64,000 nt of DNA from assembly GCA_951406725.2 (NCBI GenBank), contig OX597836.1, positions 27,838,001 to 27,902,000 of the forward strand, read 5' to 3'. Below are positions 6,545 through 33,113 of this stretch, piece after piece. Every line of letters begins with the position of its first letter. Position 1 is the stretch's first letter. The position numbers and the translations under genes are program-made. The stretch is from Octopus vulgaris (Eukaryota). Under the pieces are notes generated by a model. The model was not told the origin of the DNA. It did not search any database and was given only the letters and a program-made list of their open reading frames with translations.

Positions 6545-6920
6545 CTTTTCTACTCTACACACAAGGCCCGAAATTTTTAGGAAGGGACCACTCGATTAGA
6601 TCAACCCCCAGTACGCAACTGGTACTTAATTTATCGACCCCGCAAGGATGAAAGGCAAATCTCGAACCCGGCGGCGGAATTTGAACTGAGAACCTAAAGA
6701 CAGACGAAATACCTATTTCTTTACCATCACAGAGGGGACAAACAAGGACAGACGAACGGATTAAGTCGATTACATCGACCCCAGTGTGTAACTGGTACTT
6801 AATTTATCGACCCCGAAAGGATGAAAGGCAAAGTTGACCTCGGCGGAATTTAAACTCAGAACGTAACGGCAGGCGAAATACGGCTACGCATTTCGCCCGG
6901 CGTGCTAACGATTCTGCCAG
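6545..6920 (-). mobile_element. SINE group C, two-unit array
   Basis: Reverse strand has a partial tRNA head and GAGTTYAAATTCCGCCGAGGTCRACTTTGCCTTTCATCC-type core twice; the core resembles the Nin/Deu-type SINE central domain. Confidence 0.85.
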
Positions 6921-8009: not shown

Positions 8010-8305
8010 ATATGTTTCTTTATTAGCCACACAGGGCTGCAGACAGACGGGACCAGCTTACAAAGTAGAGCTTTTCTTCATGGGGAGAAAAGAAAAAGAA
8101 GTGGGATAGGTTTTCGATCAAAAGGTATCGTAAAAGAGAAAGAAAAAAAAGGAAAGAAAAGAAAAAAAAGAAAAAGAAAAAAACGATCAATAGGGATCGT
8201 GTATCACAGAAATGTCATGATGTAAAATGTAAAGGGGGAAGCAGATAGGGTTTATCCGTGGAAAGAAAAGCCTACGGAAAAGCCCACGGCAACTTCGGTC
8301 AATAA
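8010..8305 (-). mobile_element. Probable LINE 3' UTR fragment (L1/Tx1-like), tail shared with SINE C units
   Basis: Pyrimidine-rich reverse strand ending GTCCCGTCTGTCTGCAGCCCTGTGTGGCTAATAAAGAAACATA; clade assignment is inference. Confidence 0.5.
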
Positions 8306-25577: not shown

Positions 25578-25793
25578 TATACACACACACACACACACAC
25601 ACATATAATTGTATGTATAAACACTCAAGTAAGCAAAACAAGGTGGCAAAAATTACACTCAACTAAATTGTAGAGAAAACTACTATTTTATTAAAGCCGA
25701 AAAAATATTCTTTTCTACTCTAGGCACAAGACTCAAAATTTGGGGGGAAAGGGCAAGTCGGGCCTTGTACCTAGAGTAGAAAATAATATAGCT

Positions 25794-26370
25794 AAGGCGG
25801 TGAGCTGGCAGAATCGTTAGCACGCCGGACGAAATGCTTAGCGGTATTTTGTCTGCCGCTACGTTCTGAGTTCAAATTCCGCCGAGGTCGACTTTGCCTT
25901 TCATACTTTCGGGGTCGATTAAATAAGTACCAGTTACGCACTGGGGTCGATGTAATCGACTTAATCCGTTTGTCTGTCTTTGTTTGTGCTCTCTGTGCTT
26001 TGCCCCTTGTGGGTAGTAAAGAAACAGGTATTTCGTTCTGAGTTCAAATTCCGCCGAGGTCAACTTTGCCTTTCATACTTTCGAGGTCGATTAAATAAGT
26101 ACCAGTTGCGCACTGGTGTCGATGTAATCGACATAATCCGTTTGTCTGTCCTTGTTTTCCCCTCTGTGTTTAGCCCCTTGTGGGTAATAAAGAAATAGGC
26201 TGTTACGTTCTGAGTTCAAATTCCGCCGAGGTTGACTTTGCTTTCATTCATTCGAGGTCGATGAATTAAGTACCAGTTATGCACTGGAGTCGATGTAATC
26301 GACTTAATCCCTTTGTCTGTCCTTGTTTGTCCCCTCTATGTTTAGCCCCTTGTGGGCAATAAAGAAATAA
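25794..26370 (+). mobile_element. SINE C, three-unit array
   Basis: Head AAGGCGGTGAGCTGGCAGAATCGTTAG then three B-box/core/tail units each ending TAAAGAAAYA. Confidence 0.9.
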
Positions 26371-27021
26371 GGAACTCTCGTGGTCGTGACCGACGGAGTG
26401 CAAGCTATAAATTTGTAGGCTCTCTACAGTTCCTTTACACTTTACTTTAAATTCCTAACTTTGAAATTAGCATCAAATTAATTTACTCTAGAATAATTGT
26501 CTCCCTTACATTAGTTTGACCACCAGGGTACAGCACGTGGTTAAACACCATTTTACTTTCTTATTTTTAAAAAATCACATGGGGTGTAATAATTTGTGCG
26601 TTTGATAGAGGGGTGGGTACTTGTCAGTGTGAGAATTGCTGATTTAATTCAATGAGTGTGTCTGTGTGGACGCAAAGGGCTAATAAAGGCACCCTCTGTT
26701 TTGCTTCATGTTTTTAAAGATATGAAGTGAGCGGTGGGAGAATGTGCTATAACAGACAAGTAAATGTAACAAATGATTAACTATGTAAAGAGAAAGAAAA
26801 AAAAATGGAAAGAAACGTGAAGATGCCGAAGGAGTTTGAATGAGAATGTAAAAGAGACAGATGGCTTTTTTTATTTTTTTTTCTCCCTCTTTTCGAACGG
26901 AAATGAAGTTTGGAGAAAGACAAGAAAAATCTGCTGAGTACAAGATATTAGAAAAAATATTTTAATACATGAACTCATTGGCATTTTTTTACTTCTCTTC
27001 ATCTCGCATTGGATGTGTGGA

Positions 27022-27052
<31 letters not shown>

Positions 27053-27072
27053 CTGCGTGTCTGTCACTCTGT

Positions 27073-27690
27073 AGGCGGCGAGCTGGCAGACAAAGGCGGC
27101 GAGCTGGCTGACACGTTAACGCGCCGGGCGAAATGCTTAGTGGTATTTCGTCTGCCGTTACGTTCGGAGTTCAAATTCCGCCGAGGTCGACTTTGCCTTT
27201 CATCCTTTCGGGGTCGATAAATAAAGTACCAGTTTCGCTCTGGGGTCGATGTAATCGACTTAATCCCTTTGTCTGTCCTTGTTTGTCCCCTCTATGTTTA
27301 GCCCCTTGTGGGTAATAAAGAAATAGGTATTTCGTCTGTAGTTACGTTCTGAGTTTAAATTCCGCCGAGGTCAACTTTGCCTTTCATCCTTTCGGGGTCG
27401 ATAAATTAAGCACCAGTAACGCACTGGGGGTCGATGTAATCGACTTAATACCTATGTCTGTCCTTGTTTGTCCCCTCTATGTTTAGCCCCTTATGGGTAA
27501 TAAAGAAATAGGTATTTCGTCTGTCGTTACGTTCTGAGTTCAAATTCCGCCGAGGTCGACTTTGCCTTTCATCCTTTCGGGGTCGATAAATAAAGTACCA
27601 GTTTCGCACTGGGGTCGATGTAATCGACTTAATCCCTTTGTCCTTGTTTGTCCCCTCTATGTTTAGCCCTTTGTGGGCAGTAAAGAAATA
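27073..27690 (+). mobile_element. SINE C, three-unit array
   Basis: Units restart at GTATTTCG at 27327 and 27512; the first 20 bp or so of the head are duplicated. Confidence 0.9.
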
Positions 27691-27776
27691 TATATTAAAT
27701 AGGAAAGATATTGGGTAAGTGTATTCTGCCATAGGCCCAGTCCAACAAAGACCGTGTGAGGAGATTTGGCAGATGG

Positions 27777-27952
27777 AGGAGTGGCTGTGTGGTAAGTAGC
27801 TTGCTTACCAGCCACATGGTTCCGGGTTCAGTCTTACTGCGTGGCACCGTGGACAAGTGTCTTCTACGATAGCCTCGGGTCGACCAAAGCCTTGTGAGTG
27901 GATTTAGTAAACGGAAACTGAAAGAAACCCGTCGTATATATGTACATATAAA

Positions 27953-32529: not shown

Positions 32530-33113
32530 ATACTATAGGCACAAGGCCTTAAGTTTTGGTGGAGTGGACCAGTCGATTAGATCGACCCCAGTACGTAACT
32601 GGTACTTAATTTATCTGCCTCGAAAGAATGAAAGGCAAAGTCAAACTCGGCGGAATTTGAACTTAGAACGTTGCGGCAGACGAAATACCTATTTCTATTT
32701 CTTTACTACCCACAAGGGGCTAAACACAGAGGGGACAAACAAGGACAGACAGACGGATTAAGTCGATTACATCGACTTCAGTACGTAACTGGTACTTAAT
32801 TTATCGGCCTCGAAAGAATGGAAGGCAAAGTCAACCTCGGCGGAATTTGAACTCAGAACGTTGCGGCAGACGAAATACCTATTTCTTTACTACCCACAAG
32901 GAGCTAAACACAGAGGAGACAAACAAGGACAGACAGACGGATTAAGTCGATTATATCGACCCCAGTGCGTAACTGGTACTTATTTAATCGACCCCGAAAG
33001 GATGAAAGGTAAAGTCGACCTCAGCGGAATTTGAACTCAGAACGCAGCGGCAGACAAAATACCGCTAAGCATTTCGCCCGGCGTGCTAACGATTCTGCCA
33101 GCTCACCGCGCCT
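32530..33113 (-). mobile_element. SINE C, three-unit array ending in the alternative tail
   Basis: Junction CGAAATACCTATTTC at 32681 and 32871; head at right end. Confidence 0.9.

Follow-up and report, generated by a model that had tools for sequence, protein, structure and literature searches.

Why should short arrays of a dispersed repeat resume, unit after unit and locus after locus, at one and the same nucleotide? The question is raised by a stretch of 64,000 nucleotides (nt) of Octopus vulgaris DNA (G000:C23:27838001-27902000, contig OX597836.1), which lies within a 2.8-Gb genome and holds four head-to-tail arrays of one family of short interspersed elements (SINEs); this whole stretch is called the window below. 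A sequence-only reading of the window had proposed that a variant of the SINE inserts into the head of existing copies. Here, full-length copies of one subfamily, for which we use the label A2 (tail ..GGGTA(A/G)TAAAGAAATAG), are shown directly to insert at exactly 47|48, that is between consensus positions 47 and 48, of resident copies belonging to several subfamilies. The data support well that self-directed insertion seeds the arrays, and local duplication acts on them in addition.

Arrays in the window

The four arrays were confirmed by Tandem Repeats Finder, by BLAST with the monomer and by direct reading, and each consists of a single head (consensus 1-47) and two to three units, as first described. 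At six of the seven junctions the tail ..AAAGAAATA is joined to GGTATTTCG, i.e., ..AAAGAAA(T/C)AG is followed by GTATTTCG and the sequence restarts at consensus head position 48. At the seventh (26198|26199), ..AAATAGG is followed by CTGTTACG and about 10 nt of the unit start are gone. We label tails as A when they end in ..AAAGAAATA(G) and as B when they end in ..GGCCTTGTGCC..AGTAGAAAA. The different tail that had been noticed on the last unit of two arrays was found again in arrays 3 and 4, where it is of B type (..GGCCTTGTGCC..AGTA), unlike the internal tails. Subfamilies are further marked by consensus position 219, which is T (GGGTA..) or C (GGGCA..); in the window it is T in all seven junction-forming tails and C in both terminal A tails.

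Array 1, on the forward strand, begins with a head (consensus 1-47) and first unit (to 232) at 25796..26027, with a junction-forming tail GGGTAG..AAACAG. Its second unit (26028..26198, from 26031 by BLAST) restarts at GTATTTCG, lacks about 12 nt directly behind it (consensus ~57-68) and ends in the tail GGGTAAT..AAATAG, and the last one (26199..26370), the start of which is short by about 10 nt, carries the tail of the other A subtype, GGGCAAT..AAATA, before unrelated DNA. Tandem Repeats Finder reported 25860-26369 with 3.0 copies and 90% matches; the period is 172 bp because of the ~12 nt absent after the 26027 junction. In array 2, also on the forward strand, the opening 21 nt of the head are present twice in tandem (additional copy at 27073..27094, repeat to 27113, period 21, 2.0 copies); then come the head and first unit (27095..27325, consensus 1-232), a second unit (27326..27510, 48-232) and a last unit (27511..27690, 48-231) with the tail GGGCAGT..AAATA and then an AT-rich flank. 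Both of its junctions are seamless, and the repeat spans 27142-27690 with a period of 185, 3.0 copies and 91% matches.

The other two arrays lie on the reverse strand. Array 3 (32538..33109) comprises a head with first unit (33109-32879), a second unit (32879-32695), at the tail end of which GAAATA is doubled, and a B1-tailed last unit (32689-32538); units 2 and 3 have several non-consensus changes in common over consensus ~64-145, and 32571-33063 was reported with a period of 184, 2.6 copies and 89% matches. Array 4 (6546..6920) is made of a 5'-shortened head with an A unit that bears a tail deletion (6920-6728) and a B1-tailed last unit (6713-6546).

The head had been called tRNA-derived, which our searches did not confirm: ARAGORN found no tRNA anywhere in the window and Rfam gave no tRNA match at E<=1 over 25700-27800, box-like motifs being visible by eye only. 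Directly upstream of array 1 and outside it, an inverted pair of B-type tail fragments (25703-25791) forms a palindrome of about 90 nt, with sub-threshold Rfam matches to microRNA precursors (best 31.3 bits vs. a gathering score of 52).

Distribution in the genome

The junction 25-mer that was searched first has 18,844 exact matches in the 2.8-Gb genome, and its reversed-pattern control has none; the junction is a feature far beyond chance. Exact matches of T-type junction 25-mers (tail GGGTA(A/G)T..) number 34,273 genome-wide, those of C-type junction 25-mers (tail GGGCA(A/G)T..) 2,238 and those of the intact head site, a 26-mer, 15,726.

Individual copies were studied in a sample of 1,073,443 bases in 62 blocks. 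Its unbiased part, 464 kb, consists of the window with 200 kb upstream and of 100 kb from each of two other contigs, and the rest of 60 ten-kb stretches centred on junction 25-mer places and of five 3-kb junction loci. Two script-built consensus references (232 and 211 nt) annotated 272 elements or arrays, 108 of them multi-unit rows. Non-coding, dispersed, described by a 232-nt consensus and flanked by target-site duplications of 8-22 nt around 30 elements, the family has the attributes of a SINE. A structural filter was passed by 79 arrays, namely 44 dimers, 26 trimers and 9 longer ones (maximum 11 units), the last unit being A in 32, B in 32 and of another type or truncated in 15. Among the 189 non-first units, counted before filtering, 144 begin at position 48. 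Six others begin at position 15 directly behind a tail (T052/L052, T056/L056, T077/L077, T095/L095; L005), and represent a rarer second restart.

Nested insertions

A full-length copy inserted at 47|48 is expected to leave the resident head and a duplicated stretch, followed by a new head. The corresponding pattern (unit start 48-60, then 0-14 nt, then a head start) was found at 94 places genome-wide and at none in controls. At least 14 of the 20 inspected loci present the nested layout: the resident from 1 to ~61-75, a full-length A copy (1-232), sometimes with further units, and the resident again from 48 onwards; at L129, L131, L143, and L144, no resident remainder follows the inserted copy. 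These places bear out the proposal that a variant, with the tail ..AAAGAAATAG, inserts at one fixed nucleotide of resident copies, between head positions 47 and 48. The resident is of A type in, e.g., L128, L133, L139, and L145 and of B type in L130 and L132.

The duplications start at G48 and have a length of 13-18 nt in the nine nested loci where they were measured; the ends of high-scoring segment pairs at inspected nested loci suggest lengths of up to 28 nt. In L105, a complete copy (1-232) is followed by 48-68, by the last 17 nt of the tail and by 48-232, the inserted copy having lost all but its 3' end and the duplication of 48-68, 21 nt in length, being visible. The target had been described as the head of existing copies, and the head is indeed hit, but so are internal junctions between two units (L135, L142, L146, L147).

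Inserting subfamily and target motif

Junction formation is specific to one tail subfamily, and junction-forming tails are almost all A2. Thus, of 160 units that are followed by a restart at 40-56 (unfiltered), 156 have an A tail and two a B tail, and a B1-type tail adjoins a unit start at only three places genome-wide. Position 219 reads T in 151 and C in 5 of the units followed by another unit, vs. 52 T and 28 C otherwise (p=1e-10). The same asymmetry is present in the unbiased blocks (16 T and 0 C when a unit follows vs. 11 T and 5 C, p=0.043) and among junctions that lie outside the sampling criterion (63 T, 1 C). Together with the 34,273 vs. 2,238 junction 25-mers, these counts agree with the initial suggestion that a single tail variant forms the junctions.

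The site-specificity that had been proposed for this variant proved to be a strong preference, but not a strict one. In the unbiased 464 kb, 16 units of the subfamily directly precede another unit and 11 do not, and solo A copies are bounded by ordinary target-site duplications of 8-22 nt, which means that the family is not strictly site-specific. The proportion of T-type units that directly precede a unit start, 16/27, lies above the >20% of flanks at one target that a study of crocodilian elements requires for families of long interspersed elements (LINEs; PMC4494074).

A2 insertions outside SINEs favour GGTA(T) sites too: the flank after the tail starts with (A)GGTA in 16/46 T-type vs. 1/25 C-type elements (p=0.003). 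Duplications that start with GGTAT.. are found at L021:2049, L008:6685, L019:3681, T082:14880, C5a:62926, and T080, and their match to the unit start extends over 2 to 8 bases. Other insertion sites start with ATAT.. or AGAAA.. and match the tail end itself, and no conserved bases were seen upstream of the nick at A insertion sites. This graded and one-sided match to the motif is what pairing of the nicked strand with an RNA ending in ..AAAUAGGUAUUU would give.

Growth in place and age of units

An inserted variant was said to inherit the upstream A box, and arrays do nearly always retain one full-length head (77 of 86). Among A monomers, only 19 of 34 are full-length (p=9e-5), which argues for growth in place, since retrotransposition of whole arrays or template switching would give at least the 5' truncation seen in monomers.

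The resident, i.e., last, unit is often of another subfamily and older. For 26 arrays with B1 as their final unit, the core divergence from the respective consensus amounts to 8.6% (B1 unit) vs. 6.4% (A units); the B1 unit is the more diverged in 19 arrays and the less diverged in 4 (p=0.0009; p=0.04 at non-CpG sites). Where new and resident units have private variants in common, most of these fall within the first 28 nt. Rare variants (frequency <8%), examined in 33 pairs of A|B neighbours, are common to both units at 8 of 58 sites over positions 48-75 vs. 10 of 263 over 76-165 (p=0.007), with 1.5% of rare variants in common in random pairs; examples are L021:3641, L022:2385, and L014:2975. 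Such 5'-limited sharing implies that the new unit took over, at its start, private changes of the resident, which is the effect expected of a target-site duplication. Duplications around 5'-truncated arrays were too few, and ambiguous.

These data bear on two other ways of obtaining arrays. The first supposes multimeric masters, whole arrays being transcribed from their single head and retrotransposed, and composite A-B masters giving the mixed tails. The unit consensus contains no run of four T, and read-through transcription from the head is therefore possible as far as can be read from the sequence. A few arrays start inside a unit, with no head before it, as at L072 (17 nt of tail and one unit in unique DNA) and L061 (from consensus 89), and B1 units stand behind an A unit in 33 cases vs. 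19 with their own head, some of the 19 being mis-chained. However, longer RNAs should be truncated more often, and the full 5' end is absent in only 9/86 arrays vs. 15/34 monomers; within an array, the A units and the B1 unit are of different age, array-private variants are duplicated at 48-75, A2 units are carried by many different resident types, and the number of units varies from 2 to 11, unlike in a fixed multimeric family. We consider that such masters are unlikely to be the source of the arrays.

In the second scenario, a single reverse-transcription event takes in two SINE RNAs, the enzyme leaving the first at position 48 and continuing from the 3' end of the other. Seamless headless units and a different tail on the 3'-most unit would both follow from it, and a few solo copies begin at consensus 51-57. 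It predicts, on the other hand, units of equal age that share no private variants, both of which are contradicted, as well as frequent headless arrays, whereas just 2 of 86 begin at 48-52. It also predicts that junctions have no target-site duplications, contrary to the nested copies, and a cDNA ending at position 48 is not complementary to the tail, again on reading the sequence. Template switching of this kind is very improbable.

Local duplication

Local duplication also builds arrays. Were it their main builder, a few accidental first junctions would have been followed, locus by locus, by unequal crossing-over or replication slippage. An array of 11 units (G000:C1, ~4676072 onward) has a pairwise distance of 0.004 between its units (99.6% uniform), which differ by 0.044 from the consensus, and 51 of 100 pairs of adjacent A units, in 27 of 58 arrays, have at least four non-consensus changes in common, vs. 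6.8% of random pairs. The sequence-only reading had held that serial insertion would be contradicted if neighbouring units were each other's closest relatives; this holds in part, as these 27 arrays and the 11-unit one show, whereas in most trimers pairwise distances are near the sum of the distances to the consensus. A dimers have just 12 of 210 rare variants in common. First junctions at tens of thousands of separate loci are beyond the reach of local duplication, which also leaves unexplained this low sharing in A dimers, the nested full-length copies with their duplications and the last units of other subfamilies (32 B and 15 others in the 79 arrays, and 18 C-type among the 43 last A units). 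It is unlikely to be the principal builder. A few arrays are comparable to a SINE-derived satellite (11 units at 0.4% pairwise distance), but 70 of the 79 clean arrays have only 2-3 units, with mostly independent changes.

Two other tandem structures were met. At G000:C23:27697566-27698400 (L011-L012), a B-type SINE with an internal deletion (head 1-55 fused to 101-210) is repeated in five tandem copies of 180 bp, which form a separate small SINE-derived satellite. At G000:C10:17996023-17996504, eight pattern matches with a spacing of 64 bp apparently correspond to tandem head-only units (1 to ~63), a structure to be expected from local duplication or from repeated insertions closed very early at the 5' end.

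Candidate partner LINE

A search for the zf-RVT family returned 25,803 candidate LINE loci, 30 of which were inspected; 19 of these carry, downstream of the open reading frame (ORF), a sequence that closely matches the final 18 nt of the SINE tail. The SINE thus has a tail in common with a LINE of the same genome. In L219, a full copy of the LINE, 25 of the 26 final nt are identical to the SINE tail, with 81% identity over 47 nt, and an ORF1 of 459 amino acids with a CCHC knuckle is accompanied by an ORF2 of 1132 amino acids with Exo_endo_phos, RVT_1, and zf-RVT domains. On the basis of these sequences, the tail-sharing LINE family is a candidate partner machinery. The analogy with sequence-specific Tx1-clade LINEs that the sequence-only reading had drawn is a tentative one: the family has the tail, but none of 17 copies stands at this site.

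No non-SINE element with this tail was seen at the site in ~1.4 Mb of sequence, and a pattern search for ORF1-only tails adjoining a unit start gave no match. A protein search with ORF1 and eight 10-kb stretches yielded just stacks of ORF1-only elements, with no reverse transcriptase. In these stacks (L178-L183), ORF1-only retroelements of several types, with ORFs of ~250-516 amino acids and in many cases a CCHC knuckle, are arranged head to tail; each element ends in the 26-nt tail common to SINE and LINE, and the next begins right after it.

Two sequences located upstream of SINE units were considered as LINEs at the site and rejected. Upstream in L087 and L092 stands a member of an ORF1-like family (1,118 candidates) whose tail is related; just three near-identical copies of it, on one contig, adjoin a unit. 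The sequence upstream in L072 is unique DNA. In the three copies (L087:4118-4620, L092, and L109), 9-10 extra bases separate the related tail from a SINE unit that starts at ~48, an arrangement that may be one segmentally duplicated event. Besides, a further element, whose tail (..CCCTGTGTGGC(C/T)AATAAAGAAA) is also related, is represented by 3' ends in the window (8015-8053, reverse strand) and at L020:5250-5297 and L048:8078-8120. At L020 and L048, these lie directly beside an (ATCT)n microsatellite, a hint of a sister family that targets microsatellites.

Proposed mechanism

A2 probably inserts by target-primed reverse transcription at GGTAT sites, the commonest of which would be its own position 48, in the head and at each unit start. 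The bottom strand would be nicked left of G48 and the A2 RNA copied there, and the top strand would be cut 13-28 nt downstream. Its 3' end (48 to ~63), being identical to the same stretch of the incoming copy, could pair with the freshly made cDNA and serve as primer of the second strand; the part of the cDNA that corresponds to the incoming head would be lost as a flap, leaving one head followed by units 48-232. New units would present the same site again and allow growth at any unit boundary, and unequal crossing-over or a similar local process would then multiply units in the longer arrays. We infer that the seamless headless junctions are the same event as the nested insertions, closed by annealing inside the duplicated stretch. 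Such a closure would account for the single head per array, for the invariant 3' junction and for the small deletions behind the restart in array 1. A mechanism based on the junction AAATA-GG-TATTT, which is near-palindromic, was rejected, as the tail is not complementary in the way needed to prime at G48.

Several observations weigh against this account. Copies that bear a duplication are rare, 94 nested places (~0.3%) vs. ~36,500 seamless junctions, and 609 kb of the 1.07-Mb sample were picked at exact junction 25-mers on one contig. Rare variants common to A|A neighbours are spread evenly along the unit (~13% per bin), which points to duplication of whole units with no 5' gradient, and deletions do not cluster significantly in the duplication zone of new vs. 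resident units (6/157 vs. 14/197). As regards age, A and B1 divergences are correlated within arrays (rho 0.43), and the 8.6% of the B1 units may be inflated, their consensus resting on just 52 units. Head position 19 of B1-ending arrays is A, which is typical of A2, in 15 cases, T, which is typical of B, in 10 and C in one. An unchanged resident head does not predict this mixture, and the head must then have been overwritten during repair; position 19 was accordingly discarded as a marker of head ownership, being uninformative if heads are partly overwritten. Finally, none of 17 tail-sharing LINE copies, among the 30 of 25,803 candidates inspected, adjoins a unit start, their flanks being CATA.., AAA.., or AAC.., and no LINE was found at 47|48 with two targeted patterns, which gave one and zero matches.

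As for the choice of the site, the target is likely to be selected when the nicked DNA pairs with a SINE RNA that extends, at its 3' end, into the GGUAUUU of the next unit; a LINE endonuclease with a preference for GGTAT is the alternative. One may go further and suppose, tentatively and with less than even confidence, that the address is borne by the RNA and not by the enzyme, an ordinary LINE enzyme being steered to the SINE's own head. A copy would then have landed before GGTATTT.. in a SINE head, and its transcripts would have run on into those bases and ended there. A2 would thereby have gained a 3' end that pairs with positions 48-54 of every SINE copy, and each insertion would renew both the RNA address and the landing site, in a loop that would reinforce itself and make satellite seeds out of a dispersed repeat. 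Read-through transcripts of target-specific non-long-terminal-repeat elements (R1, R2, and the Tx1 group) carry target sequence at their 3' end, and the endonuclease of these elements is itself sequence-specific. Homing by pairing of the RNA 3' end with the nicked target, as proposed here, would be analogous to these systems.

Related systems and significance

The closest printed case is that of the crocodilian SINEU-3 and the Tx1-Mar LINEs, which have a strong preference for one sequence within another repeat (Kojima, 2015; PMC4494074). There, tandem copies "sandwiching a TSD" (target-site duplication) are put down to sequential insertion, and a co-transcribed target is suggested to strengthen homing. 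Both cases have in common a SINE that prefers one sequence inside a repeat. However, the target of SINEU-3 is a Mariner DNA transposon and its partner LINEs are found at the same target, whereas the octopus target lies within the SINE itself and no partner LINE was seen there; in addition, what is duplicated in the octopus is homologous to the arriving copy, and headless, seamless junctions predominate.

Head-to-tail SINE arrays are also described in another mollusc, the blood clam, where tRNA-related SINEs form TSD1-(SINE-TSD1)n and TSD1-(SINE)n-TSD1 arrays of 2-15 units, some of mixed families (Martelossi et al., 2024; PMC11481361). Their units are whole SINEs, for which the authors suggest unequal recombination between target-site duplications, and the portion of that article considered here describes neither a fixed internal restart nor self-targeting. 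In squamates, SINE-derived satellites consist of tandem portions of SINEs, longer arrays being more uniform (Vassetzky et al., 2023; PMC10702118). These occupy few loci and are explained in general terms by unequal recombination or repeated insertion, whereas the octopus has tens of thousands of loci with one exact junction, together with nested copies. The repeat annotation of an octopus assembly of the same size reports 11.6% SINEs and active L1-Tx1 families, and such arrays are not mentioned in the available part of its text (PMC13282606). A search of open-access full texts and preprints brought up no account of a SINE aimed at its own head.

SINEs with a preferred site are known, as are tandem arrays derived from SINEs, and they are joined here by one mechanism on a genomic scale. 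With a landing site inside its own sequence, the element has a landing pad that multiplies with each insertion; a single promoter-bearing head is kept per array, and tens of thousands of short arrays are left for recombination to expand into satellites. This provides a concrete and countable route from interspersed to tandem DNA, which may help to explain the large share of SINEs in such genomes (11.6% in the octopus annotation cited above; PMC13282606). If the address is indeed borne by the RNA, the evolution of target choice in LINE-driven retroposition need not involve a change of the endonuclease.

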